Positions 29,136 to 45,007 of a stretch of DNA of 64,000 nt are shown here, one piece after another. The position numbers and the translations under genes were made by a program. Source of the DNA: Candidatus Poribacteria bacterium (GTDB taxonomy: Bacteria; Poribacteria; WGA-4E; PCPOR2b); assembly GCA_965218095.1 (NCBI GenBank), contig OZ244587.1, positions 5,856,001-5,920,000 on the forward strand, written 5' to 3'. Position 1 is the first letter of the stretch, and every line of letters begins with the position of its first letter. A model generated the notes under the pieces. It did no database searches and was not told the DNA's origin. It saw only the letters and a program-made list of their open reading frames with translations.

Positions 29136-30089
29136 TCATTCCCGCTTCTGCCATTCCCTTGCCAAACGCTGAGCTTCGGCAATTTGAGCGGGAGTCATTT
29201 TTTCGGCAAGAATGTTACGGTAGACTTGACCCAATGTATATCCTTGTGCTACGGCGAGGTTGTACCACATGTGTGCTCTGGCATAATCTTGAATTACTTT
29301 TTCGCCTTCATCATACATTTTAGCGAGATCCCAAAACGCCTGTCCATTAAACGAATCCCGTGATTCGGTAGCTTTGCGATACCACTTGCTTGCTTCGTTA
29401 TAGTTCTGTACGGTGCCCTCAAGTGTTTCATACTTACCTGTTTCATACATTCTACCAAGATCGATTTGGGCTACGTAATAGCCCCGTTCGGCAGCCTTAC
29501 GATACCACTTGCTCGCCTCCCGATTGCTTTTAGATCCACCTTTGCCACTTTCGTACATTTCACCAAGACGATGTTGAGCCCAAGTGACGCGAGCGTGAGG
29601 AAAATCATAGTTGTTTTCTTGTTCAGCGGCTTTGCGATACCATTTTCTTGCTTGACTGTAATCACGAACAGTTCCCTCGCCAGATTCATATATTGCACCA
29701 AGATCGTATTGAGAAAATAGAGATCCTTGCTTGGCAGCTTTGCGATACCATTTAACTGCCTCCTCGTTGTCCTGAACAACGCCCCGGCCCATTCGATACC
29801 AGTAGCCAAGAGTAGTTTGGGCTTCGGCATAGTCTTGTTCAGCGGATTTATGCAACCATTTGACTGCAGCTTTATGAATCGCAAACCGATAACTATATAC
29901 CAGACTAAGTTCATATTGAGCCTCTGCATTACCTCCTTTGGCAAGAGGTAGCCATTCCTTTATGGCTGTTTCGTAATCTCCTCGCTCATAAGCGTCTTTG
30001 CCTTTCTGAAGATCTGCTAACGCCGATTTTATTGGAAGTAAACACACTATTAGAATGAGAATGAGGTTTCTGAGTTTTGGGTAAAACAT
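29136..30089 (-). CDS. Sel1-repeat secreted protein
   Basis: Repeated KWYRKAAEQG; signal peptide. Confidence 0.9.
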   Translation of the reverse strand: MFYPKLRNLILILIVCLLPIKSALADLQKGKDAYERGDYETAIKEWLPLAKGGNAEAQYELSLVYSYRFAIHKAAVKWLHKSAEQDYAEAQTTLGYWYRMGRGVVQDNEEAVKWYRKAAKQGSLFSQYDLGAIYESGEGTVRDYSQARKWYRKAAEQENNYDFPHARVTWAQHRLGEMYESGKGGSKSNREASKWYRKAAERGYYVAQIDLGRMYETGKYETLEGTVQNYNEASKWYRKATESRDSFNGQAFWDLAKMYDEGEKVIQDYARAHMWYNLAVAQGYTLGQVYRNILAEKMTPAQIAEAQRLAREWQKRE

Positions 30090-30189
30090 TGTATTTCCTC
30101 CTTTTGGTTTTATCCTTTCCTGTTTCTGTTTTAAGCCCATAACTACCTATCTCAATTTGAAATATATAGAAATCAGATTTATCGAAAAA

Positions 30190-30852
30190 CTACACACCCA
30201 GACTCGCCTTGGCGCGTTGAATCTCACTCCATAAGTGATGAGTTGCGGCAACTGGATCCGTTTGTGCACAAACGGCTGAAATGACAGCGATTCCGTGGGC
30301 ACCAGCGCAGATAACTTCGTATGCAGTTTCAGCCGTAATACCACCGATGGCAACGACAGGACACTGTGCAATTTCGCACATCCGTCGCAACGCTTCCAGA
30401 CCCTTTGGCAGTTCCGCATCCGGTTTGGAAGAGGTCTGATAGATGGGACCGAACCCGATGTAATCTGCCCCTGCAGAAATGGCTTCTAGGATCTTCTCCT
30501 CCGTCCGCGCAGAAGCCCCAATAATCATTTCCGGTGGAAGGATTCGCCGTCCAACCGCAATTGGTAGATCATCCTGTCCAAAATGGGCACCCGCTGCTCC
30601 GACAGCGAGGGCGATATCCGCACGATCGTTGACAATCAAGGAAACCCCATGCTCCGCACAAACAGCTTGCACCGCCTGTGCGGATTCGACCAGTTCGCGT
30701 GTACTTTCATCCTTCTGACGAAACTGGATGGTGTCGGCACCGCCCCCAATCGCCATTTTTGCTAACTGTGCGCGTGTAAACCGCGATTGGATGGTTGTAT
30801 CGGTGATAACGTGCAATACACCAATTTTTTTCATACCGGAGCTTATTTCCAT
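30190..30852 (-). CDS. thiE: Thiamine-phosphate synthase
   Basis: QFRQK, LIVNDR, HFGQDD, AIGGI. Confidence 0.93.
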   Translation of the reverse strand: MEISSGMKKIGVLHVITDTTIQSRFTRAQLAKMAIGGGADTIQFRQKDESTRELVESAQAVQAVCAEHGVSLIVNDRADIALAVGAAGAHFGQDDLPIAVGRRILPPEMIIGASARTEEKILEAISAGADYIGFGPIYQTSSKPDAELPKGLEALRRMCEIAQCPVVAIGGITAETAYEVICAGAHGIAVISAVCAQTDPVAATHHLWSEIQRAKASLGV

Positions 30853-30980
30853 TTTGTTGGTGAAAAAGGCTGTAGTGTGGATTCAGAACTGGAATCCTTA
30901 TTTTGAGATGCGCAAATATTCTCTTTCATAACAGACATCGAAAGTTCGGTGCTATTTTGTTTCTGTTTTGTTGTTTGTGA

Positions 30981-31757
30981 CTATAACTGGGGTTTTTGTT
31001 CTGATTTCGCACACCCGACGATTTCTGCTATTCTGAGTTCATACATCACCAACGCCACGCCCACAATCGCGGCGGTCTCCGTGCGCAAAATGTTGCCGCC
31101 GAGTGTTACAGGTAGGCACCCCTTTTGAAGCGCCAACTCGACCTCTTTGTCTGAAAATCCGCCCTCGGGACCAATAAAAAGCCCAATCGATTCTGCCGTT
31201 TGATGACTTCGTAACACTTCTTTGAGCCCTCGCCCGTCTTTGTTTTCCCACAAGAGGATTAACAAATTGAGATTCGTCGCTCGTTCAAGACACACCTCCA
31301 TCCGCTGAGGGGCAAGCACTTTGGCGAATTGAGGGCGTTTACACTGTTTGGCGCTTTCGTTTGCAATGCGCTGCCAACGGACTGTCCGTTTTTTCTCGGC
31401 AACCTCTGTGCGTTTCGGAATCGAGCGGCGACAAATCATCGGCGCAATTTTAACCACACCAATTTCCGTCGTTTTCTGCACGATGAGATCTAGTTTGTCG
31501 AATTTTGGTAAGCCCTGGAAAAGTGTGATATACGGCGGGGTTAGCGGATGAAATTGGCGCTCCAAGATTTTCGCTTGTAGAAGGGGAGAGCACATATCAC
31601 AAAGCATAGCGATATAACTGTTGCCTTCCCCATCAAAGACCTGAACTGGATCGCCGGGCTTCAGGCGCAGCACATTGAGCAGGTGATGCCGCTCCGATTC
31701 ACCAATGTAGATGGTATCTTTGGAGATTTGCGTGGGAGGAACGTAGCAACTGTGCAT
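30981..31757 (-). CDS. rsmE: 16S rRNA m3U1498 methyltransferase
   Basis: HHLLNVLR, QKTTEIGV, IGPEGG, ILRTETA. Confidence 0.95.
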   Translation of the reverse strand: MHSCYVPPTQISKDTIYIGESERHHLLNVLRLKPGDPVQVFDGEGNSYIAMLCDMCSPLLQAKILERQFHPLTPPYITLFQGLPKFDKLDLIVQKTTEIGVVKIAPMICRRSIPKRTEVAEKKRTVRWQRIANESAKQCKRPQFAKVLAPQRMEVCLERATNLNLLILLWENKDGRGLKEVLRSHQTAESIGLFIGPEGGFSDKEVELALQKGCLPVTLGGNILRTETAAIVGVALVMYELRIAEIVGCAKSEQKPQL

Positions 31758-31760
31758 CGG

Positions 31761-32438
31761 CTACCCACCTGACGAAGCTGCTTGTCGTAAAGCGCTGATC
31801 GCACCCCGGAGATCATCACTCCCAAAAATCGCCGTGCCCGCCACCAAAATTGTCGCCCCACAATGCCCCACTAACGCGGCGGTCTCCTTGTTGATTCCGC
31901 CATCGACCTCAATCTCAGCGTTCATTTTCTGAGCTTGGATCAGTTCCCACAAGCGCGTGATCTTGTCAAGTGTACTCATTTGGAACGATTGCCCACCGAA
32001 GCCGGGTTCGACGCTCATCGGCAGAACAAGGTCAACATCGGACAGATGCGGTTCAACCGCTGAGAATGGTGTCTGTGGGCGCAGAGCGATGCCAGCCTTC
32101 ACACCACGACTCTTGATCTGGTCGATAAATTTGGACAACTCGCCATCAACCTCAATATGCACAGTAATCAGATCCGCGCCGGCATCTGCGAATGCATCAA
32201 TATAATCCTGCGGATGGGTGAGCATCAGATGCACATCGAATGGGAGTTCCGTATAGCTCCGGATGGACTTAATAAGCTGTGGCCCCATTGTCAGATTCGG
32301 GACGAAATGCCCATCCATCACATCAAGATGGATGAGATTCGCCCCCGCTCCAGCAACTCGACAAACCTCCTCACCCAGCCGACTAAAATCCGCTGCAAGC
32401 ATTGATGGGGCGATTTTAATCTCTCGTTCCATTACCAA
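31761..32438 (-). CDS. rpe: Ribulose-phosphate 3-epimerase
   Basis: APSMLAADF, HLDVMDGHFVPN, MSVEPGFGGQ, VDGG. Confidence 0.96.
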   Translation of the reverse strand: MVMEREIKIAPSMLAADFSRLGEEVCRVAGAGANLIHLDVMDGHFVPNLTMGPQLIKSIRSYTELPFDVHLMLTHPQDYIDAFADAGADLITVHIEVDGELSKFIDQIKSRGVKAGIALRPQTPFSAVEPHLSDVDLVLPMSVEPGFGGQSFQMSTLDKITRLWELIQAQKMNAEIEVDGGINKETAALVGHCGATILVAGTAIFGSDDLRGAISALRQAASSGG

Positions 32439-33415
32439 TCGAATCCCTCCGTTTTGACCAGCATTCTATCTTCATAAACGCGCATTGTTGCTTTACCCAA
32501 AACCCTTAGCGACGGCTTTTCGATGAGCATACCGGACTGATATAAATCATTGACAACCTCAATCCGCTTTGTGCGCTCATCCTCAACAATGATTCGTACA
32601 CTCTTGTAAGGTGCACCGGTTGAGGAAACGCGATATTTTACCTGCACCACACACCCTTTATCGGGTTGGCTTCTACGGGAACCGCTAATCTCAAGATTAA
32701 CCACCTGTCCGACTGGAATCAGTTCACCTGCAGCGGGCTGATGATTGATAATCAATCCCTGGTTAATCTCCGGATGCGGCTTGTACGCTTCTTCACCGAT
32801 TTTGAGACCGTGTGATTCGAGTAAAGCAGGCACCGCATCGATTGGCATACGGCGCAGGTCCGGCATCCGCAGCACTTTTGAACGCACACCCAGACTCAAT
32901 AGTAGGTGAACGGACGCACCTCGCTGATATATGGTACCTGCCCGGGGTGTTTGCGCGATAACGGTATTGACCTCTGGATACCGATCGGCGTGGACTGCCG
33001 CAACGCGCCCCTTTCGAAATCCAGTGTCTTTGAGGGTGGCCTCCGCATCGTTCACGAGGCGCCCTGCAATATCCGGTACAATGACCGCCTCGTTACCCAT
33101 GCTCAAAGTCAGTCGAACCGGCTTATTCAACTTAATTTTGAAATTCGCCGGGGGCTCCTGGGCCATAACATATCCCTTCGGGATGTCTGGGCTTGGTTCC
33201 TTTTTAATAGCGGTATCGAGTTGAAGTCCAGCACGGCTGATGAGTTGGACTGCGCCCCGGTAGTTTTGCCCCACTAGGTTCGGGATAGCCACTTCTGGAG
33301 TGCGGACCTGATGGGGGATGACCCAAAAAAGGAAAACCAACCCAATGCCGCTAATCACCACAAGGCAAAGCAGCGCAACTTTGATGATAGCAATTAATAT
33401 GGCATTCAGGCTCAT
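32432..33415 (-). CDS. PASTA domain membrane protein (3 PASTA, no kinase)
   Basis: N-terminal TM; IPNLVG/VPDIAG/MPDL repeats. Confidence 0.85.
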   Translation of the reverse strand: MSLNAILIAIIKVALLCLVVISGIGLVFLFWVIPHQVRTPEVAIPNLVGQNYRGAVQLISRAGLQLDTAIKKEPSPDIPKGYVMAQEPPANFKIKLNKPVRLTLSMGNEAVIVPDIAGRLVNDAEATLKDTGFRKGRVAAVHADRYPEVNTVIAQTPRAGTIYQRGASVHLLLSLGVRSKVLRMPDLRRMPIDAVPALLESHGLKIGEEAYKPHPEINQGLIINHQPAAGELIPVGQVVNLEISGSRRSQPDKGCVVQVKYRVSSTGAPYKSVRIIVEDERTKRIEVVNDLYQSGMLIEKPSLRVLGKATMRVYEDRMLVKTEGFDW

Positions 33416-33422
33416 CTTGGAC

Positions 33423-34403
33423 CTAATGTGTTGGCGTTTTCCTGCGAAAGAGCCAATCGCCGGTTTTCAATCGATACCCATTTAAAAAGGCACGCGCATC
33501 CATTGCTTTTTTGTTTGCGGGTTGAACACGATCTAATCGCAAGGATCCCTTCCCACACAAGACAATAAGCTCCCTGGAAGACGTGATCTGAATCGTACCG
33601 CTAGGGACATCCGCCGGATGCGGATAATCGACGTCGGCACACGCAATTATCTTCAAACGGAGATCATTAGGCATAGAGGTCGGGCTTGTCCCTACCCATG
33701 TATACGCGCCAGGCCAAATCGATGTGCCACGCACTAAATTACCAATCCGATCCGCTGGCTGTTCCCAGTCAATCTGTCCGATCTCTTTGGTTAGTCGAGG
33801 GGCATGGGTCGCCTTCGCATGATTTTGAGGCCGGTGCGGTGGCAGTCCCTCTGAGGCATGCGCTAACGCTTGAATCAACAGGGAAGGCGCTAAATTCGCC
33901 AGTCGATCCGAGAGCGCAGCGGCATTATCCTGGTTGTTAATTGGAACGCGCTTTTGCAGGACGATATCCCCTGTATCTTCTCCTTCATCCAGCAGCATGA
34001 TGGTAATGCCCGTTTCCGTCTCCCCGTTAATGAGCGCCCATTGAATCGGGGCGGCGCCTCGATATTTCGGAAGGAAAGAGGGATGTACATTGAGGCAGCC
34101 ACAGGGAGGGAGCGTCAGCACCAATTTGGGAAGAATCTGACCAAAAGCAGCGACAACAATTGCGTCGGGCTGAAGCGCTCTGAGGACATGAACGAAGTTG
34201 CGATGCCGCACCTTTTCCGGCTGATAAATCGGTATATTGTGTTCAGCAGCCACAATTTTAACGGGTGGGGGCGTAAGTTGCTTGCCTCGACCGCCTGGTC
34301 GATCCGGCTGCGTCACAACGCCAATCAGATCGAAACCCGCAGGAACGAGCTTTTCTAAGCTCGGAACAGCAAATTCGCTTGTGCCCATGAAAAGAATCTT
34401 CAT
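33423..34403 (-). CDS. fmt: Methionyl-tRNA formyltransferase
   Basis: FMGTSEFA, NVHPSFLPKYRGAAPIQ. Confidence 0.96.
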   Translation of the reverse strand: MKILFMGTSEFAVPSLEKLVPAGFDLIGVVTQPDRPGGRGKQLTPPPVKIVAAEHNIPIYQPEKVRHRNFVHVLRALQPDAIVVAAFGQILPKLVLTLPPCGCLNVHPSFLPKYRGAAPIQWALINGETETGITIMLLDEGEDTGDIVLQKRVPINNQDNAAALSDRLANLAPSLLIQALAHASEGLPPHRPQNHAKATHAPRLTKEIGQIDWEQPADRIGNLVRGTSIWPGAYTWVGTSPTSMPNDLRLKIIACADVDYPHPADVPSGTIQITSSRELIVLCGKGSLRLDRVQPANKKAMDARAFLNGYRLKTGDWLFRRKTPTH

Positions 34404-34912
34404 CTTTCAATCACCGTTTTTGTGGTGGAATCAGGCCGAGATTCAAGCAACTCTTGGTCATCAGGGATAAGCCGATCGATAAAGAGAACCCCGTCGAGGT
34501 GGTCAATTTCATGCTGTAAGACCCGTGCCATCAAGCCACTCGCATCAAACTCAACTTTGTCGCCATTCGATAGCAGTCCCTCCACCTTTACGGTCGCCGC
34601 TCGTCGCACGATTCCCCGTTCGTCCGGCAAACTCAGACAGCCTTCCTCACCGAGTTCTTCGCCTACCGCCATTGTAATCGTTGGATTAATCAACGCGATC
34701 TGAGGGTGCTCCGAGTGGTGTTTCTCGATGTCAATCACGATTAGCCTTTTGGACACTCCAACCTGTGGTGCTGCCAGACCGATCCCTTGCGCCTCATACA
34801 TCGTTTCAAACATATCCTTGATGAGTTGAAGCAAATCGGCGTCGATTTCTTGAACAGAAGGCGCCTTTTGTCGTAAAACAGGAGCGGTGCCGATTTGAAT
34901 TTCTAGTGCCAT
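34400..34912 (-). CDS. def: Peptide deformylase
   Basis: GIGLAAPQ, EGCLS, QHEIDHLDG. Confidence 0.97.
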   Translation of the reverse strand: MALEIQIGTAPVLRQKAPSVQEIDADLLQLIKDMFETMYEAQGIGLAAPQVGVSKRLIVIDIEKHHSEHPQIALINPTITMAVGEELGEEGCLSLPDERGIVRRAATVKVEGLLSNGDKVEFDASGLMARVLQHEIDHLDGVLFIDRLIPDDQELLESRPDSTTKTVIER

Positions 34913-35250
34913 AACGTAGAACGTGAAACCCCAACAGATCGGGGCAGGCTGTGATGAGTGAAACGTGATAAACCTATAAGCCTAAAAGCAAAGGCGAACC
35001 AGTTGATTTAACTGTTGGTGGTATTTGAAAGCTTAACCAGCACACCTGCTTCTTTTAACCGTTCACCATTGGCTCTCTGCAGGATGAGATCGCCGGTTAA
35101 TATACGATTAAGTTCCTGAACCTCTTTTCCATAAGTTGAAATCGAGGCTATTATGAATTGCTGCATCCTTCGCCCCGAGCAGCTCACGTGCCATTGACCG
35201 TAAGAAGTTTTGAATTAGACCGAGAATTCCTTGGAAGTAACATAAGCTCA

Positions 35251-35745
35251 TTAAAAGCGAAAGTGAACAAGTGGAATAACAAGCCCATCTGGCTCATCGG
35301 GCTCCCAATCATTCTGCCCAACTTCCCGAGAAGGCGACTGGGGTGAATTGGGAATACGTTGAGGCGAGGTGGGCATAAGTTGTTCCGAACGATCCTTGTC
35401 GTGCGTATGCAGCCAATCCCAGAATCCGATAAATAGGGCAAGCGATACCGCAGATGCCCCGATAATCTTAAAATCTTTCCCCGATAGTTCGGGAGCGAAT
35501 TGGTTCTGTCGGATCATCTGGACACCACGTACACCCAGAAAACTGTGAATCGCTGTGAACGGCAGGGAAATGAAGGTGACAATTTCAAAGCGACGTAACC
35601 CACTTTCATGGTAAACCTCCTCCTGCCGATGGGCAGGTAGCGTATCTTCCGAATCTCGCTGATATTGGGCGGAAACGTTGGTGACAACCATTGCAGTTAA
35701 AATCAGCATGGTGAGCAATTTAGTTTTCGATCTGTTTCGCTTCAT
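35251..35745 (-). CDS. Hypothetical membrane protein
   Basis: Signal peptide plus TM segments; overlaps lspA end; RBS GAGGAG. Confidence 0.65.
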   Translation of the reverse strand: MKRNRSKTKLLTMLILTAMVVTNVSAQYQRDSEDTLPAHRQEEVYHESGLRRFEIVTFISLPFTAIHSFLGVRGVQMIRQNQFAPELSGKDFKIIGASAVSLALFIGFWDWLHTHDKDRSEQLMPTSPQRIPNSPQSPSREVGQNDWEPDEPDGLVIPLVHFRF

Positions 35746-36217
35746 CGTAATCTCCTCGCTGATAAAACAGATGAACCATGAGCATTCCAGCTCCGATACA
35801 AACCGCGACATCGGCAGCATTAAAAGTGGGCCACCAGAAGCCGGGCAGTCGAAATTGAAGAAAGTCCGTGACTTCGCCAAGGCGGATGCGGTCTATAAAG
35901 TTGCCGAGCGCACCACCGAGCAGAAAACCGAGTGCAATCTTCATCCACAAACTCTCACGGAAACGCTTGTAATAAAAGAAAATAAATCCAATTGCAAGGA
36001 GTGAGATAATAATCAGTAGCAGGTTTTGCCCGCGCATCAATCCAAAGGCAGCCCCATCGTTTGTATCATGACGCAGGTTAAATATGCCTTTAATGATGAC
36101 GTGTTGACCATGGAGTGGGATATTTTGTTGAATCAACCACTTAGTCAATTGATCCACAAATAACATAGGCAAAGCAACACTAAATAGGGGGATAATAGAC
36201 CTGAGAACTTTCTGCAT
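35720..36217 (-). CDS. lspA: Lipoprotein signal peptidase II
   Basis: DQLTK, NDGAAFG, GNFIDR, VTDF, FNAAD. Confidence 0.95.
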   Translation of the reverse strand: MQKVLRSIIPLFSVALPMLFVDQLTKWLIQQNIPLHGQHVIIKGIFNLRHDTNDGAAFGLMRGQNLLLIIISLLAIGFIFFYYKRFRESLWMKIALGFLLGGALGNFIDRIRLGEVTDFLQFRLPGFWWPTFNAADVAVCIGAGMLMVHLFYQRGDYDEAKQIEN

Positions 36218-36308
36218 TTACAATTGTCCTTGTGTGGAATGCGTAAAACGTGATGCGTAAAGCATAAAAAACCTTACGTCTTACGCATCACTCGTTAATC
36301 CTTACTCG

Positions 36309-38780
36309 TTACGTTTTGATTCGCTCATTCATCCAATCGCCTAACAGTTCCTTCCAGCGGGCATCCGCATCTGCGATATGAGGTGCGTTAATCTGGGAAA
36401 CCCAATCTTTCAGAAAAACGCTCGAAAACTCAAACTCACACTCACCTTTGACGCCATCGGAAGATGAGGAAGCGGTGTCTCGTCTCTGGATTAAGGCGTG
36501 GGTTTGTTCGGCAAAAAAAGGGATAATTGGCGCAAACCGTTGTATCAACACACGCGAGAGCTCCCACAGTGCCGTTTGGCCCGATCTTGCTTCTCGTGTT
36601 GCTTTTGCAGCGTTGAACCGATTCTTCAATACTGGCAAGTAAAACTGTTGAAGATCTGATTGGCAGAAGTCTCTTAGCACACACCATGCCTGATGAAAAT
36701 GGCGCTGCTGGTAGGCGAGATCCACGGATTGCAAAACTCGATTTGTAACAGATAACGCCAGTGCATCTAAGGGAAACAGCGTTTCTAAGGCGCGTTTATG
36801 CGCGTCCGGGTTAAAGTTTTCGAGATAACTCAGTATTTCAGCGTATAGCCTTTTAACCGTGTTGTATTCATTCTGACACTGTTGGATGGGAGCCTCCATC
36901 GATGGATGGTCAAAATCAGGATGGATGCCCAGGAGCCGAAGAACATCCTTTGGATATTTATCAATCCAGTTTTCACTTACTTCGGCCGACTGAACATTTG
37001 AACCAACACTTGTCAATTCCATATTCAACGGCGTAGCATCGTGGATCGCAATCGAAGTCAAGATGAACTGGGAAAACCATTTGTGAAATTGATTTGGGTG
37101 AAAAAAGTAAACATTAACAGGCTGGGAATTATTTCCCTTGACCTCGGAATTGTTGATCGCGTTAACAAGAACAGCGAAGCGTCCATCCAGGAGCGTGAAT
37201 TCTTTCCGAAACTCTTTTGCATCACAGTTGGGGCATAAGGTGTTCGGAGGTAACAAATCTTCAGCATTCAACTTGAACCAGATATTGGGGCCACGACGCC
37301 CAACCAAAGCACAGATGGCTTTGAAAATTCTGGGGTCGGAGAGTTGGCACCCACATTTTTCGCACTGAAAAATAGGAATCGGAGCTCCCCAACCTCTGCG
37401 AGATGAAACACATGGATCTGAAAGGTCCCGGATAGTTTGTTGTATCCAATCCCTATCTTCTGGGCTATAGTGCGCCCAATAGTCACCGGAGTCGAGCACA
37501 CGCTGCCTCAAGTGATTACTGTCTAGAGAGAAGCTCCACTGTTGAACAGGGCGGAATAAAGTAGGCGTATCACACATCCAGCAGTGAGGCTGCTGCACCT
37601 CCTCATGCCCTGCATAGACCAGATATCCTCTCTTTTCTAATTCAAAGGCGATGAACTTTCCGACTTCAGAGATTTCAAGTCCACAAAACTGCTCTGAATT
37701 CTGCGTTAGGTGCCCCGTATCATCAATAACAGAAGGGGCCGGGAGTTGCAGCGTTTGTGCAACTTGATAATCGTATGGATGATGTCCAGGCGTCAGATGC
37801 ACCACCCCTGTTGGTGGTGAAAACATCGTTTCCGCATTCAACACACCATCGGGTTGGGAGAGGTCAGGGACAGCAACCACCGGAAGATCTGTCCCCAGAA
37901 ATGGATGGGCACAGGTACAACCCGTTAAAACATCAACTCGACACGTGTCTAATAGATTTATGCCCGTCCGGAGCCCAGCGGGGAATCGGGTGGAGAGGTC
38001 TTCTTCAGCCAGGACAAGGACTGCACTACCAAGCTCAACAATCAAGTATTGGCTGTTTTCCTTCAATCCAATTGCAACGCTTCCCGCAAGATGCCAGAGA
38101 TCCTGAAGCCACACCAGGAAGTAAACGTCCTCACCAAACTCCTCCAAACCTATGCTCACGGGAAATTTCACATATCCTGAATACGCTTGAGCGGGGCGAA
38201 TTTCTATCTCATCTTCATCTAAGATCGTATTACATTTTTGACACCAACAGCCCAATTTTCGATCTTTATCCAGGTAACCCAATGCCCACAATCTACTGAA
38301 AACATTGATAATCTTCGCTTCATCACGTACCTCCAGATTTTTGCTGCTGCTTTTCCAATCCCCAAAAATCCCGAGTGCATGGAGTTGCTGCCATCGGCGA
38401 GCGACTTCATGCTGAAATTCACGTCGACACTGTCGGCGAAATCGCAGTGCATCAAATGTGCCTTTTCTATGCTCCGAATTAAGCGCCTTTCGCTCAACAG
38501 CAGAGGTATAATAATCCCAATGCGGCACGTACTCTACTCCTGCTCCGCGCATCATGTTGACTTTAAGAAAAACATCCTGCTGGATCTTGCCTTTAAGCAT
38601 ATCCAGTTTAAAGTGATGAATGGCAGTGGGCATTTCTCGAAGGATATAGTGTGGCAATCCGGCTCTACGAGCAAATTGGGCATAGATATCGGTCTCTTGC
38701 CAAATTTTCAAAATCCTTTCTTCGGTAAGCAAATGAAAAGTTGGTGAAGCGGATACAGACAAGGTATTTGCTCCGTTCAT
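36309..38780 (-). CDS. IleRS-like class I synthetase homologue lacking HIGH/KMSKS (probable pseudoenzyme)
   Basis: Collinear with IleRS (LGIFGDW, WC..C.T.L, WGAPIP, anticodon domain) but the catalytic motifs are replaced. Confidence 0.85.
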   Translation of the reverse strand: MNGANTLSVSASPTFHLLTEERILKIWQETDIYAQFARRAGLPHYILREMPTAIHHFKLDMLKGKIQQDVFLKVNMMRGAGVEYVPHWDYYTSAVERKALNSEHRKGTFDALRFRRQCRREFQHEVARRWQQLHALGIFGDWKSSSKNLEVRDEAKIINVFSRLWALGYLDKDRKLGCWCQKCNTILDEDEIEIRPAQAYSGYVKFPVSIGLEEFGEDVYFLVWLQDLWHLAGSVAIGLKENSQYLIVELGSAVLVLAEEDLSTRFPAGLRTGINLLDTCRVDVLTGCTCAHPFLGTDLPVVAVPDLSQPDGVLNAETMFSPPTGVVHLTPGHHPYDYQVAQTLQLPAPSVIDDTGHLTQNSEQFCGLEISEVGKFIAFELEKRGYLVYAGHEEVQQPHCWMCDTPTLFRPVQQWSFSLDSNHLRQRVLDSGDYWAHYSPEDRDWIQQTIRDLSDPCVSSRRGWGAPIPIFQCEKCGCQLSDPRIFKAICALVGRRGPNIWFKLNAEDLLPPNTLCPNCDAKEFRKEFTLLDGRFAVLVNAINNSEVKGNNSQPVNVYFFHPNQFHKWFSQFILTSIAIHDATPLNMELTSVGSNVQSAEVSENWIDKYPKDVLRLLGIHPDFDHPSMEAPIQQCQNEYNTVKRLYAEILSYLENFNPDAHKRALETLFPLDALALSVTNRVLQSVDLAYQQRHFHQAWCVLRDFCQSDLQQFYLPVLKNRFNAAKATREARSGQTALWELSRVLIQRFAPIIPFFAEQTHALIQRRDTASSSSDGVKGECEFEFSSVFLKDWVSQINAPHIADADARWKELLGDWMNERIKT

Positions 38781-38807
38781 GATGTGGTGGCTTGGGGTAA
38801 TGCGTTT

Positions 38808-38864
38808 GCTCTAACGAATCGAGCTAGCTCTAACGAATCGAGCTAGCTCTAACGAATCGAGCTA
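38808..38864. repeat. Tandem repeat 19 bp x3
   Basis: GCTCTAACGAATCGAGCTA x3, exact. Confidence 0.95.
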
Positions 38865-39011
38865 TTAGAATCTTAAAATGATGATTTCACTCAAACCTTT
38901 TGCGACTTCAATACCACTATAACTGAGTGCTTCTTGTTGTTCACAACTCTGACTGCAAGCATCCTCAATTATGTCTCAAGGAAAGCGCAATATCCAGCGA
39001 CATCTTTCCTT

Positions 39012-39284
39012 CTACACCTGTATAGCATCCCGTATTACCCACAAAAGCATAATTAAAATAAAAGGTGAAATATCGATACCGAAGCCACGCGTCACTGGAC
39101 TGAGAACGCGACGAATTGGATCTAAGACAGGGTCGACGAACTGATTCGTCATCCAATAGATTTTCCGAACTATCATATTCCTGGAGCTATAAACAAACCA
39201 GGATAATACCGCATTGATGACAACAATCCAAATATAAATCTCAATCGCTCCACGCAATAGCCCTGCTATCGACAATCCATCCAT
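39012..39284 (-). CDS. yggT: YggT family membrane protein
   Basis: LSWF...DPVLDPIRRV...IDISP. Confidence 0.9.
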   Translation of the reverse strand: MDGLSIAGLLRGAIEIYIWIVVINAVLSWFVYSSRNMIVRKIYWMTNQFVDPVLDPIRRVLSPVTRGFGIDISPFILIMLLWVIRDAIQV

Positions 39285-39308
39285 AATCCAGATTCCTTCC
39301 CAATGTTG

Positions 39309-40121
39309 TTAATTTGTGAGTTCTTCTGCGCGTTTAGTTGCAGCAATCACTGCATCAGCGATGATCGACCGGAATCGTCCACGTTCTAACTCATACAGGC
39401 CAGCCGCCGTTGTCCCGCCGGGCGTCGTCACGAGGTTTTTCAGGGCTGCCGGATGTTCTCCCGTTTGCTCAAGCATCTTGCTCGCCCCAAGCACAGTCTG
39501 CACGGCAAGCTGACATGCGTCTGGACGAGATAATCCGACCTGTACCCCTGCATCGGCGAAAGCTTCAATGAATAGGAACACAAATGCGGGCCCACTGCCG
39601 CTCAAGCCGGTAACGGCATTGAGGTGTCTTTCTTCCATGACTAACGACTTGCCTACAGCGTCAAAAATTGCTTGCGCCTCAGAGATATGATCATCTGTGG
39701 CAGCGCTTCCCGGGGTAATTACGGAAATCGCTGCCCTGGCGGATACAGTGATGTTTGGCATCACGCGAACAATTGGTGGGGCGGAAGAAAAATAGGATTC
39801 TAATCTCGCCGTTGCTACTCCTGCTGCGATGGAAACCATCCATTGGGGAGGAGATTGGATTGCAGCGGCAATTTCTGGAAGAATTTCCGGTACGGCACTC
39901 GGCTCGGCGGCATATAAAAGGATATCGACATTTTCAATAAGTTGGGGGATACCATCTGCTGCATTCGCTCCTGATTCTTCGCACAGTTGATCAACGAGGG
40001 GGCGGTAGACATCCGTGATCCAGATCCGTTCAGACGGGAGCACACGACCCACCACTCCCCTAACAATCGCGCTTCCCATCTTCCCAACGCCGATGACACC
40101 CAATCGAAGTTTTGTATCCAA
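39309..40121 (-). CDS. proC: Pyrroline-5-carboxylate reductase
   Basis: GVGKMG, SIAAGV, RVMPN, GSGPAF, TPGGTT. Confidence 0.95.
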   Translation of the reverse strand: MDTKLRLGVIGVGKMGSAIVRGVVGRVLPSERIWITDVYRPLVDQLCEESGANAADGIPQLIENVDILLYAAEPSAVPEILPEIAAAIQSPPQWMVSIAAGVATARLESYFSSAPPIVRVMPNITVSARAAISVITPGSAATDDHISEAQAIFDAVGKSLVMEERHLNAVTGLSGSGPAFVFLFIEAFADAGVQVGLSRPDACQLAVQTVLGASKMLEQTGEHPAALKNLVTTPGGTTAAGLYELERGRFRSIIADAVIAATKRAEELTN

Positions 40122-40204
40122 AAGTTTTGCTCCTATGCGTGAAACGTGAATGAATTAACTCTATGATTCGCCAATTTGTCTACTAGCTGACTTTGCCTGC
40201 ACCA

Positions 40205-40894
40205 TCACTCACGCTTCTCAAAAATGGCGGTACCAATTCTGACAAGATTCGCACCCTCTTCAATCGCAACCTCAAAATCATTTGTCATTCCCATTGACAG
40301 ATACTCCATATCAACGTCCGGCAACTGCTGGGCGAGAATCTTCTCCTTGAGGCGCCGCAGCAGTACGAACATCGAACGAACCGCTTCAGGGTTGGGCAGA
40401 AAGGCACCGATTGTCATGAGCCCTTTGATCCGGACATGGGCATAAGTGAGCGCACTTTCAATGAAATCAAGCGTCTGATCCGGTTCAATGCCGTACTTAC
40501 TCGGTTCGGTGGAGGTGTTGACTTGAATCAATACCTCTGTCTGTCGGTTCAACTGTGTAGACCGTCGGTCAATCTCAGCAAGGAGTCGCAGACTATCTAC
40601 GGAATGGATGAGGTCAAAAATCTGCAATGTCTGCTTCACTTTATTCGTTTGCAAATGCCCGACAAGATGCCACTTAACAGGGCGGCCAACCTGATCATAC
40701 TTGCTTTTTGCTTCTTGAACGCGATTCTCGCCAATGTCCGTGATGCCTGCGTCGATCGCTTCCAAAATGAGGCTGACAGGCTTGGTTTTAGAAACGGCAA
40801 CGAGACCTATCGAATGCGGATCGCGTCCGGAGCGTTCAGCGGCTACGGCAATTCGATCTTGAATCTGCAAAAGGTTTTCGCGAATGGAAGCCAA
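40205..40894 (-). CDS. yggS: PLP homeostasis protein YggS
   Basis: VAVSK, GENRVQE, GHLQTNK, LSMGMTND. Confidence 0.96.
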   Translation of the reverse strand: MASIRENLLQIQDRIAVAAERSGRDPHSIGLVAVSKTKPVSLILEAIDAGITDIGENRVQEAKSKYDQVGRPVKWHLVGHLQTNKVKQTLQIFDLIHSVDSLRLLAEIDRRSTQLNRQTEVLIQVNTSTEPSKYGIEPDQTLDFIESALTYAHVRIKGLMTIGAFLPNPEAVRSMFVLLRRLKEKILAQQLPDVDMEYLSMGMTNDFEVAIEEGANLVRIGTAIFEKRE

Positions 40895-41094
40895 TTATCC
40901 TTCTCCTCTTGCAAGAACAACTTAGCAGAGGTATGTGAAACGGTTAAATGATAGCACATTTCGAGAACCAATTGCAAGAGCAAACCTGAGATCCAAGCAG
41001 TTCTTATGAGGCCAGGTGGCATTAGGGCTTGGGCGTAGGAAATGACCTAACACCTGAGACCGACTTTGATTCGCTGATTCGTTGATTCGTTTTT

Positions 41095-41850
41095 TCAGAG
41101 GAGCCTAATTAAGGAGAGCATCCGCCCCGTTTGTCCACCTTCTGCCCGATGGGAGTAGAAAAGATCTGCCCGACAGGCGGTACAGAATTGTGAGACGGAA
41201 ATCGCGTGGAAGGGAAGGCCAGCTTGAAGGAGTTGGTGGGCATTTGCAGTTTGGAGGTCAAGCGTGCATTTGCCGACTCGTACATGAGGGCCAAACGCAC
41301 CCTCAAATTGCTCTGCGAGGGATACACTCACCGTGTAGCAGCACTTCTGAATCGAGGGGCCAAGGTGAGCGAGACATCTTGAAGGAAGGGTGCCAAAGTG
41401 CTTCTGCATCGCGGTGATCGTCTGTGCGGCAATCTCAGCCAAAGTTCCACGCCATCCTGCGTGCACAATGCCGATTGCTGGGGTCGCCACGTCCAAAATG
41501 AAGATCGGGACGCAATCCGCCGTAAACACACCAGGCGCGATAGATGGGTAAGCCGTAATCATTGCATCTACCTCGGCAAGCGGGTTTTGCAACTGAGGGG
41601 TAAATCGATCTATCAACAGAACACGGTCGCCATGAACTTGACGACAATGCACGAAACCTTTCGTTTCCAAACCGATCTGGTTGAAGAAAATCCGTCGGTT
41701 GGCAATCACCGCTTCCGGATCGTCGTCTACATGATTGCCGAGATTCAGCGCGTGGTAGGGCGCTCGACTTACACCACCTCGACGGATACTTGTCACAGCT
41801 TGGACCAATCCTGTCTTCTCGAATGTGCCAACAGTGTGGTAAAGATTCAT
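41095..41850 (-). CDS. pgeF: Peptidoglycan editing factor PgeF/YfiH
   Basis: QVHG, TADCVP, HAGWRG, FYSHR. Confidence 0.92.
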   Translation of the reverse strand: MNLYHTVGTFEKTGLVQAVTSIRRGGVSRAPYHALNLGNHVDDDPEAVIANRRIFFNQIGLETKGFVHCRQVHGDRVLLIDRFTPQLQNPLAEVDAMITAYPSIAPGVFTADCVPIFILDVATPAIGIVHAGWRGTLAEIAAQTITAMQKHFGTLPSRCLAHLGPSIQKCCYTVSVSLAEQFEGAFGPHVRVGKCTLDLQTANAHQLLQAGLPFHAISVSQFCTACRADLFYSHRAEGGQTGRMLSLIRLL

Positions 41851-42048
41851 GGATTACAAAAACATGGCCAGGAACTGAAATTTACAAAGCGACTACACTG
41901 CCGTTTTTTAAATTCGGATGGGGTTTCTAGATCAGGATTCAAAGCAACCCCGATTAAGAGATCGGGACTCAGAGCAGCCTGGATTTGTCGGTAGGAATAG
42001 ATCGCAGCTCACAATCAACCTACGGCAAACACGCCATTTTGCCGTTTT

Positions 42049-42858
42049 TCACAAATTTCCGCGCCATTTATCGAATTGTCGAATCGATGTCAGCAGCGCG
42101 TTTGCAACCTTGTCCTGATAAGCTGATGAGTTGAGTTTTTTATACTCCGCTCTGTTTGATAAATATCCTAACTCGACCAGGAGGGCTGGCATTTTCGTAT
42201 CAACAAGGACACGGAAGGGCGCCCGTCTCACCATTTTGTCGGGAGCATTCCGATTCCGATTGCGGATTTTGAGGTGGGATACAAGCACGGATTGCACAAT
42301 CCGGGCAGCTTCCCAACTATATTTTTCGCTGCCTCTCTGATATAGATTGTTGACGATAAAATCGATAGGATTCACGATTTCTTCGGCGTTTTCCCATTGG
42401 GCTAACTTTGCTGCGAATCTGTCAGTCGCTTGCAGGCTAAAGATATAACTTTCTAGTCCGTGAACATGCGGACTGGGATGCGAGTTGCAGTGGATGCTGA
42501 TAAAAAGCGTCTGATCGGCTGGGAATTGATTGGCAAAACGAGCGCGGTCAGCTAATGAAATCCAGCGATCCGTCGATCGCGTGAGGTGGACTTCATACAC
42601 CATTTCCTCACGAATTAATGCCGCTAGTTTAAGCGTGATTGCAAGGTTAATGTCCTTTTCCTTGCCCCGCCACAGACTCACGTTGCCAGGATCTCTGCCA
42701 CCGTGCCCGGCATCAAGCACGATGGTTTTCAGGCGAAATGGCAACTTTATCTTCGGGGTGGCTTGGACCAGTTCAGACGTGTCTGCCGGTAACCCGGTAA
42801 TGGATACACATAAGAGTAGTATCGCTGCAGGAATCAGCGATTTCCGTTTTATGGACAT
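42049..42858 (-). CDS. N-acetylmuramoyl-L-alanine amidase (Amidase_3)
   Basis: LDAGHGG, EK, SIHCN, LVELGY. Confidence 0.93.
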   Translation of the reverse strand: MSIKRKSLIPAAILLLCVSITGLPADTSELVQATPKIKLPFRLKTIVLDAGHGGRDPGNVSLWRGKEKDINLAITLKLAALIREEMVYEVHLTRSTDRWISLADRARFANQFPADQTLFISIHCNSHPSPHVHGLESYIFSLQATDRFAAKLAQWENAEEIVNPIDFIVNNLYQRGSEKYSWEAARIVQSVLVSHLKIRNRNRNAPDKMVRRAPFRVLVDTKMPALLVELGYLSNRAEYKKLNSSAYQDKVANALLTSIRQFDKWRGNL

Positions 42859-42976
42859 CTATCTCCTCTAAGCAAAACGAGTTCTACATTCCACGAATGA
42901 AGTAGGATGTTTAAGTATGACTAAATTTGTTAGAATTCCCACCATAGAGCAAGAAGACAATTTCAGTAGGTTTCAT

Positions 42977-43076
42977 ATACCATGATAAACGCATGATACC
43001 ATGATAAACGCATGATACCATGATAAACGCATGATTACCATGATAAACGCATGATTACCATGATAAACGCATGATT
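42977..43076. repeat. Tandem repeat 19-20 bp x5
   Basis: ATACCATGATAAACGCATG x3, then ATTACCATGATAAACGCATG x2. Confidence 0.95.
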
Positions 43077-43222
43077 TTCCGGTCAGTTTCATGGGGTGTA
43101 TATCCGAAAGGGCGATATCAGAGTAAAGCCGGTATTCAGGATTGAATTTGGATTGGGCTATCGTGTTACCTTGTGGGAGGTGAATTCTGATATTGTCTAA
43201 CCGAGGAAATTTAGGGTCAGAT

Positions 43223-43969
43223 TTAATCAGAGGAGGCATCGTCAGGAGGAGGAGTTGGAATGTAAAGAATGCGTTTACAGCTTCCACAACGAATGAACTG
43301 TTCACACTTACGTGCTTCTTGTATCGTTTGAGGCGGAATTGTGAGGTGACAACTACCGCACGCATTATCGACAACCAGCGAAACAAGTCCTGATCGTTGG
43401 CGTTGGAACCGCTCCTGGTACTGGCCCATTAAGCTTTGATCTATCTTCGGGAGGAATTCCCGCCGTTTTCCCTGCCATGCGGCGATTTCTGCCTTGAGAA
43501 CTTCAGCTTCCTGATCGTATTGGGCTTTCTGTTTGTTGTTCTTCACTCGTTCAGCATCGAACGCCTTTTGTTGTTGGACAAGTTCCTCTTTGAGTTGATC
43601 AATACGCAACATCACTGATAAAATCCCGTCTTCCATCTCCGCTTCTTCCATTTCGAGGAAACTAATCTCTTTATCTAGCGCCTGGTACTCTTTGTTGGTC
43701 TTCACATCCCGTAACTGCGCCTGGTATCTTCCACGCCGCGCTTGTTTCATTTCAAGTTCACCCGTTCCGGATCGCTGCTCTGTCTCCGCTTCAGCGAGTT
43801 GCCCCTGCTTTTTCTGTAATTTTTCTCGATGAACGTGAAGGCTTTCCTCTAATTCTTGAATCTTGGGAGGAACAGATTTGAGTTTCTGATGGAATGCCAG
43901 GATTTCCATGTCGATCTGCTGAAGCTTATACAACAGCCGCAGTTGTTCCTGTAAGTCAAGATTAAGCAT
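43223..43969 (-). CDS. Coiled-coil C4 zinc-ribbon protein (DUF164 type)
   Basis: Long coiled coil; CGSC...CGSCKRIL. Confidence 0.88.
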   Translation of the reverse strand: MLNLDLQEQLRLLYKLQQIDMEILAFHQKLKSVPPKIQELEESLHVHREKLQKKQGQLAEAETEQRSGTGELEMKQARRGRYQAQLRDVKTNKEYQALDKEISFLEMEEAEMEDGILSVMLRIDQLKEELVQQQKAFDAERVKNNKQKAQYDQEAEVLKAEIAAWQGKRREFLPKIDQSLMGQYQERFQRQRSGLVSLVVDNACGSCHLTIPPQTIQEARKCEQFIRCGSCKRILYIPTPPPDDASSD

Positions 43970-44792
43970 AGCTCTCAGGCTCCTGTTCTACGATAAAAGC
44001 AAGGAAAATCCCCAACTGATATAATAAGATAAGCGGAATCGCCATCAATAACATAGACAATACATCTGCCGGGGTCAGCATCGCCGCCATGATAAAGATG
44101 CCAACGACAGCATAGCTCTGCCGTTCGCGGAATCCCTGCGCGTTGATGACGCCGATTCGTGACAAGAACGCCATGACAATCGGGAGTTCAAATGCAATAC
44201 CAAATCCTAGCAGTAAGCCGGTTAGAAAACTCACATACCGATCAATGCTCCACAAGTTCTCAACACCGGCGTCAGAGAAGAGTCCGGCGGAAAATTCGAC
44301 CACAACAGGTGCGACAATGAAGTAGGCGAAAATTGCGCCCACAAGAAAAAAGAGAAGGATAATCAGAAACAGAGGCAATGCAAACTTTCTCTCCTGTTGT
44401 GTTAAACCGGGGAAGACAAATGCCCAAACCTGGTAAAGAACAACTGGTGATACGAGCAACGCCCCAAAGGTGACGCCGATTTTGAGAAAAGCCATGATGC
44501 CTTCACCAGGCCCAGGTTTGTTAAAATTGACCTCGCTCCTTGATGCTTTTGCTCTCAGGACAATCGATACAAACCCCATGAATGAACTGTCCGAACTGAA
44601 GGTTCGATCTATCAAGTTTGCCAGTTGCGTGTTGAGCGGTACATCGGCAGGCCGCCTTAAGATTTTTGTAATCGGGTTGATGAACCATAGGCTCACAATT
44701 GTGAATATAACGATTGCGAGCACAGAGACAATAATCCGTCGGCGGAGTTCTTCAAGATGATCTAGAAAGGTCATCGATGCTTCAGAAGGCAT
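43962..44792 (-). CDS. tatC: Twin-arginine translocase TatC
   Basis: HLEELRRR, YQVWAFVFPGL, FELP, TPAD. Confidence 0.96.
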   Translation of the reverse strand: MPSEASMTFLDHLEELRRRIIVSVLAIVIFTIVSLWFINPITKILRRPADVPLNTQLANLIDRTFSSDSSFMGFVSIVLRAKASRSEVNFNKPGPGEGIMAFLKIGVTFGALLVSPVVLYQVWAFVFPGLTQQERKFALPLFLIILLFFLVGAIFAYFIVAPVVVEFSAGLFSDAGVENLWSIDRYVSFLTGLLLGFGIAFELPIVMAFLSRIGVINAQGFRERQSYAVVGIFIMAAMLTPADVLSMLLMAIPLILLYQLGIFLAFIVEQEPESYA

Positions 44793-44800
44793 GCTGATCG

Positions 44801-45007
44801 CTAAACCGTCTTATTCGCAGGTTTGGTCGAATCGCGTTCATCTTCCTCAGTCGATTCGACAATATCGTTTTGAATTTCTTTGCCGGCGTGCTTAAATTCT
44901 CGAATTGCCTTTCCAACTGCCCGCCCCATTTCTGGCAACCGCTTAGGACCGAAAATCAGGAGTGCAATTATGAGGATGATAATCAGTTCTGTTGGCCCAA
45001 ATCCCAT
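44801..45007 (-). CDS. tatA: Twin-arginine translocase TatA
   Basis: ELIIIL..LLIFGPKRLP..G.AIREFK. Confidence 0.95.
   Translation of the reverse strand: MGFGPTELIIILIIALLIFGPKRLPEMGRAVGKAIREFKHAGKEIQNDIVESTEEDERDSTKPANKTV

Follow-up and report, generated by a model that had tools for sequence, protein, structure and literature searches.

An IleRS Homologue Directly Upstream of lspA

In a stretch of 64,000 nucleotides from Candidatus Poribacteria bacterium (GenBank assembly GCA_965218095.1, contig OZ244587.1, positions 5,856,001 to 5,920,000), hereafter the window, a gene homologous to those for isoleucyl-tRNA synthetase (IleRS) is located directly upstream of lspA. We have named it pIleRS (protein P0001). 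It consists of one ATG-started frame of 823 amino acids at 36309..38780 on the minus strand, with zero internal stops in the list of open reading frames (ORFs) of the window. As judged from its sequence, pIleRS belongs to the type-1 IleRS lineage (IleRS1) by descent, yet its model score and its HIGH, KMSKS and editing motifs are not those of a functional ileS product. In all, we consider it quite probable that pIleRS is the ancestral IleRS1 of the phylum, still in place upstream of lspA in these sponge-associated bacteria and kept by purifying selection as a non-catalytic protein.

Two Pfam families are detected in pIleRS, tRNA-synt_1 (PF00133; expectation value (E) 6.4e-31, residues 23-586) and Anticodon_1 (PF08264; E 3e-13, residues 673-795), and a third, zf-FPG_IleRS (PF06827), was not found by the Pfam search: the C-terminal zinc finger is absent. 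Against the ileS equivalog model (NCBIfam TIGR00392), the protein scores 291.1 bits, below the curated cut-off of 621.4, and is, therefore, not a member of that family. The top phmmer match among PDB sequences is the type-1 enzyme of Priestia megaterium (8c9e; E 1.9e-71), with query residues 20-761 on chain residues 24-767, and the type-2 enzyme 8c8u is far weaker (E 6.5e-31). The closest relatives in sequence and in structure are type-1 enzymes, the tree position is inside IleRS1, and the ileS-lspA gene order is that of the IleRS1 lineage. The original prediction, made from the letters of the window, had described an uninterrupted 823-amino-acid ORF collinear with IleRS, and the alignment with 8c9e bears this out.

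The features of the gene are given below; the motifs were read from a residue-level alignment to 8c9e and a 31-sequence alignment.

36309..38780 (-): pIleRS, IleRS1-derived pseudo-synthetase (P0001); ORF, Pfam, ileS model, relatives, dN/dS
38598..38639 (-): HIGH-loop relic, REMPTAIHHFKLDM, residues 48-61; aligned to PPYANGxIHxGH of canonical IleRS1
38499..38522 (-): GWDxHG relic, HWDYYTSA, residues 87-94; alignments
38232..38249 (-): putative zinc knuckle 1, first half, CWCQKC, residues 178-183; motif positions
37596..38195 (-): CP1 (editing-domain) fold, threonine-rich motif lost; alignments, predicted structure
38091-38111 (-): WTTTPWT relic, WLQDLWH, residues 224-230; alignments
37572..37583 (-): putative zinc knuckle 1, second half, CWMC, residues 400-403; motif positions
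37395..37415 (-): WCISRQR relic, PCVSSRR, residues 456-462; alignments
37224..37364 (-): putative zinc knuckle 2, CEKC ... CPNC, residues 473-519; conserved cysteines
36993..37103 (-): EGxDQxRGWF relic, FHPNQFHKWF (residues 560-569), followed by the deleted KMSKS loop; alignments
36396..36764 (-): helical anticodon-binding-type domain, Anticodon_1, residues 673-795; Pfam, E 3e-13

Signature Motifs Lost and Structural Residues Kept

In class I synthetases, HIGH and KMSKS bind ATP and stabilise the transition state of adenylation. In pIleRS, the HxGH columns are occupied by FKLD, which is not a HIGH signature, and this loss is common to every aligned sequence of the pseudo-clade, that is, the clade of motif-less Poribacteria-type sequences described below. 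The KMSKS columns are a gap at ELTSVGSNV (residues 588-596) in the window protein and its close relatives. Amongst orthologues, the W alone is invariant in the GWDxHG relic, and the D alternates with N. The editing site lacks WTTTPWT, with the H of HxAPGHG and one D kept. In the helical domain, the conserved RNTxR and KDxxY residues have disappeared, and no IleRS1 zinc-finger domain follows before the C-terminus. The readings originally given for HIGH, GWDxHG, WTTTPWT, WCISRQR and KMSKS all hold in both alignments, and Pfam and motif positions agree with the earlier account of a missing C-terminal finger, four CxxC motifs and a remaining anticodon-binding domain.

The four CxxC motifs (residues 178-183, 400-403, 473-476 and 516-519) pair into two putative zinc knuckles, which presumably resemble those of Thermus IleRS. 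In an alignment of 17 pseudo-clade sequences, C180, C400, C473, C476, C516 and C519 are invariant, as are W179 next to C180 and P398 near C400.

For a global measure, we took the 168 alignment columns with a conservation of 90% or more among 24 canonical IleRS1 and compared them with 44 pseudo-clade sequences. At 69 of these columns, pIleRS still has the canonical residue, and at 99 it differs; across the pseudo-clade, 43 columns are kept in at least 80% of the sequences and 105 in less than 50%. The lost set comprises every signature motif, RNTxR/KDxxY of the helical domain and the C-terminal finger, and the kept set is mostly structural (Trp, Pro, Gly and putative zinc ligands). Conversely, at 19 positions the clade is conserved for a residue other than that of most canonical enzymes. 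CP1 contains eight of these clade-specific positions (G211, E213, E214, Y338, L358, C366, E380 and E382), four being acidic (E213, E214, E380 and E382), and three more make up a basic cluster (R490, R495 and R496) within the zinc-knuckle module. The clade-conserved positions of the Rossmann half are L72, V82, R152 and L170, plus structural residues in common with canonical IleRS, and a conservation analysis of the former active-site pocket found no new conserved polar constellation there.

In E. coli and P. megaterium IleRS1, the change of HXGH to GXHH abolishes product formation, and a natural IleRS1 with a variant motif was not found among 379 sequences (PMC10485003). Since pIleRS has lost both HIGH and KMSKS, and the mere swap is lethal to IleRS1 activity, the protein would be unable to activate isoleucine or to charge tRNA. 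The absent threonine-rich motif speaks against post-transfer editing, and the loss of the C-terminal domain and the helical-domain motifs against canonical anticodon recognition.

The fold appears to have outlasted the motifs. The AlphaFold2 model of pIleRS (68-row alignment) has a mean predicted local distance difference test score (pLDDT) of 87.2 and a predicted template-modelling score of 0.85, with low confidence for residues 1-14 and 776-781 only. Foldseek ranks P. megaterium IleRS1 first (8c9f and 8c9e; template-modelling score 0.79), then the IleRS of S. aureus and H. pylori. The IleRS1 fold is thus predicted to be intact, in favour of the original prediction, and the remaining body would be rigid, zinc-stabilised and multi-domain, with clade-specific conserved surface residues chiefly on CP1.

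A Canonical Type-2 IleRS in the Same Genome

The genome to which the window belongs is a single 6.35-Mb contig. About 1.3 Mb from pIleRS, it encodes a canonical type-2 IleRS (IleRS2) of 1119 amino acids, which carries WTTTPWT, the GVHH signature and MHKS and scores 687 bits (summed) with the ileS model, above the cut-off. The second IleRS that the original prediction had expected elsewhere is, therefore, extant:

G000, contig C1, 4547-4550 kb, outside the window (locus L002, 229-3588) (-): IleRS2; ileS model

Frames for ValRS, LeuRS and MetRS are likewise present. With pIleRS as the query, an IleRS2-type frame was matched in 39 of the 41 genomes of a first scan; the two without a match (G005 and G028) were not searched with an IleRS2 query. 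Each of five more distant genomes has an IleRS over the ileS cut-off (by summed score in G057), as well as a second, sub-threshold copy.

The IleRS2 of all 18 same-family genomes compared carry G[VI]HH instead of HxGH, and GVHH is found in three of four more distant ones. In IleRS2, the GXHH signature has been linked to mupirocin hyper-resistance (PMC10485003). Because the working IleRS2 carries this signature, antibiotic pressure is hinted at as what may have driven the replacement of IleRS1 by IleRS2.

Distribution and Gene Order in the Phylum

Of the 176 species-level genomes searched in the phylum Candidatus Poribacteria, 155 match pIleRS at E <= 1e-40. By family (our working labels), it occurs in 24/28 genomes of f1, 111/112 of f2, 6/7 of f4, 7/8 of f8, 1/1 of f9, 3/3 of f5 and 2/2 of f10. 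At the same threshold, there was no match in family f3 (0/11), in genus g5 (0/4) or in three single-genome families, two of which have listed completeness values of 73 and 79%, the third being unlisted. The first scan of 40 relatives gave the same picture: 20 of 24 same-family genomes (absent from all four of g5), 6/6 of f2, 5/5 of f4 and 0/5 of f3. pIleRS is an ancient pseudo-synthetase of most genomes in the phylum and not a lineage-specific oddity. The source names of close homologues are Candidatus Poribacteria, and the proteins are most often called "class I tRNA ligase family protein".

We opened 36 loci of relatives, of which 19 are from the same family, 11 from f2 and f4, and six from the class or phylum level (two of them from G041). 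Each of the 36 holds a single open frame, of 735-943 codons; frame lengths are 784-861 codons in the 20 same-family loci (window included), 735-896 in the 11 of f2 and f4, and 746-943 in five at the class or phylum level. Stop-riddled copies, which would have pointed to simple decay, were found in none. Rows of the genome search flagged with "stops inside" proved to be matches that overran the frame ends, with the stops outside the ORF and the opened loci uninterrupted over 784-861 codons, and a seemingly split gene in G007 was rejected, as that circular assembly begins inside the gene.

The gene order around pIleRS is conserved as yggS-proC-yggT-pIleRS-lspA-(209-aa gene)-(def)-fmt, in agreement with what had been claimed for the upstream and downstream neighbours. 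In the window, the flanking genes are:

35720..36217 (-): lspA (lipoprotein signal peptidase), downstream neighbour; ORF
39012..39284 (-): yggT-like gene, upstream neighbour; ORF
39309-40121: proC, upstream of yggT; gene order
40205-40894: yggS, upstream of proC; gene order

lspA directly follows pIleRS in 35 of the 36 relatives' loci opened. The exceptions to the gene order are L057, with two extra frames in between and a 431-codon frame between pIleRS and lspA, and L059, without lspA on the stretch. The second copy in G045 scores just 110 bits with the ileS model, yet it is located in the order proC-yggT-[746 codons]-lspA. The five opened genomes without pIleRS (g5 and f3) have yggT followed by lspA after 69-546 bases, and a tblastn search of these five loci with seven clade proteins gave no convincing match to a remnant (lowest E 0.082). 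Two states only were seen at the locus, an intact gene or its clean absence.

A description of the window as full of pseudogenes is not borne out: 79% of its length is taken up by 56 non-overlapping frames of 120 codons or more, and at the locus, where pseudogenes were looked for, all genes are intact and conserved.

The 209-amino-acid ORF at 35251-35880 (-) overlaps the end of lspA, and its counterpart is directly downstream of lspA in 18 of 21 labelled loci, including five without pIleRS (36-57% identity). Amongst loci L054-L061, def was not found between the 209-amino-acid gene and fmt in those of f2 and in two of f4; it is present in the family of the window, in the other f4 loci and in f3.

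Purifying Selection on pIleRS

The pairwise ratio of non-synonymous (dN) to synonymous (dS) divergence of pIleRS (Nei-Gojobori, 761 ungapped codons) has a median of 0.182, with values from 0.13 to 0.235, in the 125 pairs (of 190) whose dS is below 2. Neighbouring genes from the same loci give 0.075 (proC), 0.09 (lspA), 0.159 (yggT) and 0.185 (def), and IleRS2 gives 0.05 in 18 of the same genomes (121 of 153 pairs, both dS < 2); the dN of pIleRS is 3.0 times that of IleRS2. One-ratio maximum likelihood codon models yield omega values of 0.257 for pIleRS and 0.082 for IleRS2, the former far below one, as originally supposed. Per site, synonymous differences are 3 to 5 times as frequent as non-synonymous ones in each of seven disjoint genome pairs (Fisher p 1.5e-11 to 1.7e-67). 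Purifying selection has, thus, acted on pIleRS throughout, at a strength that is weaker than on IleRS2 and in the range of ordinary genes. The case for selection is made by this comparative evidence and not, as in the original prediction, by the absence of stops in one copy.

The N-terminal Rossmann half is the most constrained region, with an omega of 0.118; the values elsewhere are 0.188 in CP1, 0.184 in the C-terminal Rossmann half with the zinc module, 0.255 in the former KMSKS region, 0.216 in the helical domain and 0.48 over the last 23 aligned codons. The dN of the helical domain (0.178) is the highest of the five structured regions.

The synonymous divergence of pIleRS and IleRS2 disagrees in individual genome pairs: dS is 0.094 for pIleRS vs. 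0.434 for IleRS2 in the pair G009-G024, and the reverse holds for pairs with the genome of the window (about 1.5 for pIleRS vs. 0.4-0.9 for IleRS2). Possible causes are recombination, a transfer of one of the two loci and a difference in codon bias.

Phylogeny and Order of Loss

In a FastTree phylogeny of 71 rows, 36 motif-less Poribacteria-type sequences constitute one clade inside IleRS1 (Shimodaira-Hasegawa (SH)-like support 99). HIGH and KMSKS are absent from every aligned sequence of this pseudo-clade, down to 25% identity, and so the original reading of a conserved motif loss in orthologues is upheld. The basal members (P0068, P0069, P0073, P0074 and P0124; 918-949 amino acids), whose features are also those of the G041 copy, already lack HIGH and KMSKS; they do retain WTNTPWT or WIGTPWT, in most cases a WSISRQR-type motif, and a C-terminal CxxC...CxxC finger (PF06827 is present in P0068, P0069, P0073, P0074 and G041). 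The inner members, including the window protein, have additionally lost the editing motif, the WSISRQR-type motif and the finger. On this tree, the catalytic motifs appear to have been lost first, and the editing site and the C-terminal domain later.

Eight metagenome representatives (P0141, P0167, P0242, P0259, P0152, P0202, P0222 and P0246) form a second, separate motif-less IleRS1-like clade, without KMSKS and often without HIGH (SH-like support 99), and two single motif-less sequences (P0133 and P0149) stand beside canonical ones in the tree. The loss of catalysis in IleRS1 may, hence, be recurrent. A genome scan with P0152 for the host of the second clade kept 80 loci, all 11 aligned being canonical IleRS1; the nearest genome match is the canonical IleRS1 of an Armatimonadota metagenome-assembled genome, with 53% identity.

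A Probable Pseudo-Synthetase Kept in Place

These observations are coherent with the following history. A type-2 IleRS would have taken over the charging of isoleucine, and the IleRS1 gene would then, long ago, have ceased to be that of a synthetase. It has stayed at its usual locus, and the decay would have occurred in place, after replacement and not after duplication. In the predicted fold, pIleRS keeps the whole rigid body of IleRS1, that is, the Rossmann core, CP1, the two putative zinc knuckles and the helical domain, and it is without the residues for ATP binding and the adenylate transition state (HIGH and KMSKS), the editing threonines and, in the class of the window, the C-terminal anticodon-reading zinc domain. 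pIleRS would now work by binding and not by catalysis. Three marks of a pseudoenzyme are seen in it: a (predicted) retained fold, catalytic residues consistently lost in orthologues, and purifying selection.

Several points weigh against this interpretation. It is motif loss that supports the term "non-catalytic"; every genome used is a metagenome assembly; the FastTree phylogeny has long branches and is rooted on the IleRS2 of the window genome as a single long outgroup branch; and IleRS2 is selected about three times more strongly than pIleRS. At least two lineages (g5 and f3) do without the gene, and any role it has is thus not essential everywhere; from these clean losses, it follows that the role is conditional. 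Evidence for expression is weak as well. In four metatranscriptomic runs from one sponge study, 50-65% of the sampled words of the gene are present, and RNA-library contigs of at least 95% identity (70 of 79 at least 99%) cover pIleRS and its neighbours at similar low depth. Such contigs attest presence only, with DNA carry-over possible and with uncovered parts and differences in depth uninformative; they are compatible with transcription of pIleRS. Finally, the role that we regard as the best single guess is that of a candidate protein-binding scaffold or regulatory subunit acting through the CP1 and zinc-knuckle surfaces. We put this role forward tentatively, on the indirect grounds that 8 of the 19 clade-specific positions lie in CP1 and that the tRNA-contact motifs are lost.

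Second amongst the candidate roles, and rather unlikely, is that of a protein that binds tRNA-Ile or Ile-tRNA-Ile without charging it, so as to sense uncharged tRNA, to act as a chaperone or to sequester its ligand. Sensing of this kind is done by the HisRS-like domain of GCN2. The L-shaped tRNA-docking body of IleRS1 is wholly predicted to be intact in pIleRS, Pfam detects the anticodon-binding domain, R490, R495 and R496 make a clade-specific basic patch in the zinc-knuckle module, and the basal members keep the C-terminal finger. However, the class of the window has lost the anticodon-reading domain, neither the RNTxR and KDxxY residues nor the KMSKS loop remain, and, of the structured regions, the helical domain has changed the most at the protein level (dN 0.178; omega 0.22). 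Net charge and isoelectric point, taken as a hint of RNA binding, do not distinguish pIleRS from canonical IleRS, the protein being as acidic as the canonical enzymes. Thus, the core of the original proposal, a non-aminoacylating pseudoenzyme, is supported and extended, and of the three roles offered with it, the tRNA-binding one is weakened.

It is improbable that the old pocket of pIleRS has been turned to a new enzymatic use, e.g., as an aminoacyl-tRNA-dependent transferase like SbzA or the cyclodipeptide synthases. The latter resemble class I synthetases and use charged tRNA. SbzA is an IleRS homologue that moves Ile from Ile-tRNA to another acceptor (PMC6331615), the N-terminal Rossmann half of pIleRS is its most constrained part, and its fold is predicted to be intact. 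Nevertheless, SbzA has HIGH and KMSKS and is encoded in a biosynthetic cluster, whereas pIleRS has neither motif and housekeeping neighbours; moreover, the Rossmann half is devoid of a clade-specific conserved polar constellation and the tRNA-contact elements are lost. The probability that these three candidate roles leave over goes to a role of another kind.

It is very improbable that pIleRS remains an active IleRS whose active site is unorthodox. The full-length ORF and the retained fold would allow it, and IleRS2 enzymes tolerate a non-canonical GXHH (PMC10485003); in IleRS1, however, that mere swap is fatal to activity (PMC10485003), and in pIleRS HIGH has been replaced in full, the KMSKS loop has been deleted, the residue differs at 99 of the 168 conserved canonical positions, and the ileS model score is under half of the cut-off. 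IleRS2 is matched in 39 of the 41 first-scan genomes and all five more distant ones, and two lineages have cleanly lost pIleRS.

Least probable of all is a decaying pseudogene that is open by chance, or DNA kept only for lspA expression signals: although pIleRS evolves three times faster than IleRS2, was lost in two lineages, and overlaps or abuts the lspA start in several loci, one open frame is found in 36 of 36 relatives' loci at a divergence down to 25% identity, four putative zinc-ligand cysteines are invariant, neither an omega near 1 nor frequent stops in orthologues were found when looked for, and a synonymous excess occurs in every disjoint pair, which selection at the DNA level alone would not give.

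Comparison with Other Synthetase Homologues

With IleRS1 (P. megaterium 8c9e and S. aureus 1ffy), pIleRS has in common the collinearity over residues 20-761, the predicted fold, the locus upstream of lspA and the tree group; it differs in being without HIGH, GWDxHG, WTTTPWT, WCISRQR, EGxDQxRGWF, KMSKS and the C-terminal zinc finger. SbzA, from Streptomyces, is the sole IleRS-like protein with a non-canonical role found in the literature searched. Like pIleRS, it is an extra IleRS homologue beside the housekeeping IleRS and stands apart from charging for translation (PMC6331615). It differs by slightly modified HIGH and KMSKS, weak aminoacylation and an antibiotic gene cluster (PMC6331615; review, PMC12945691), and it was modelled on Thermus IleRS at 37.6% identity (PMC6331615), a feature without counterpart in pIleRS. 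pIleRS does not belong to the SbzA type: the motifs are absent and the neighbours are yggS, proC, yggT, lspA, def and fmt.

SLIMP and the HisRS-like domain of GCN2 are non-enzymes derived from synthetases. HisZ and the inactive half of the double-length TyrRS of trypanosomatids likewise have a synthetase fold without aminoacylation and a regulatory or structural role (PMC9437257), as would pIleRS. All these descend from HisRS, TyrRS or SerRS, as truncated or fused forms or as partners of a known enzyme; pIleRS, in contrast, is a free-standing, full-length class Ia relic with the editing and helical folds, seemingly decayed in place. An inactive IleRS is not among the duplicated synthetases in the accessible portion of that review (PMC9437257). 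In Bacilli, IleRS1 and IleRS2 occur as a pair in one genome, as here, but both are reported to be active and complementary (bioRxiv 10.1101/2022.02.09.479832), and here the catalytic motifs are on IleRS2 only. Our literature searches, subscription-only literature excepted and a 2026 IleRS phylogeny paper included, did not find a description of a motif-less Poribacteria IleRS1.

Synthetase-derived non-enzymes are, thus, known, mostly as truncated or fused proteins, and pIleRS would be a complete body kept phylum-long after it had become redundant through replacement. It may be that a full-length, free-standing class Ia synthetase has become a non-catalytic protein with a new cellular role, as a partner of IleRS2 or another translation component or as a sensor of tRNA-Ile, throughout the phylum, a proposal to which we give somewhat less than an even chance. 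In this respect, pIleRS is a candidate for a new function: the IleRS scaffold may have a regulatory role, or one outside translation, that has gone unrecognised. It can also be looked at as a natural experiment, in which the removal of catalysis leaves in place the putative zinc knuckles, the Rossmann core and the CP1 fold, but not the C-terminal domain and the tRNA-contact motifs. In practice, the pseudo-clade is an annotation trap, as metabolic and completeness calls that count its members as IleRS would err. One member without HIGH or KMSKS, P0073, is named "isoleucine--tRNA ligase" in its public record, and several JGI entries are named "isoleucyl-tRNA synthetase".

The Region Upstream of pIleRS

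A search for a leader RNA (T-box or similar) near the gene gave zero Rfam matches at E <= 1 over positions 30000-45000, and promoter and terminator scans near the gene were not above the shuffled expectation. A 19-base unit, GCTCGATTCGTTAGAGCTA (gene strand), is present in about three copies at 38808-38862 of the window, 27-81 bases before the start codon. One RNA-library contig (X11) is without 19 bases in this repeat and another (X13) skips 38; the copy number of the unit thus varies in the population.

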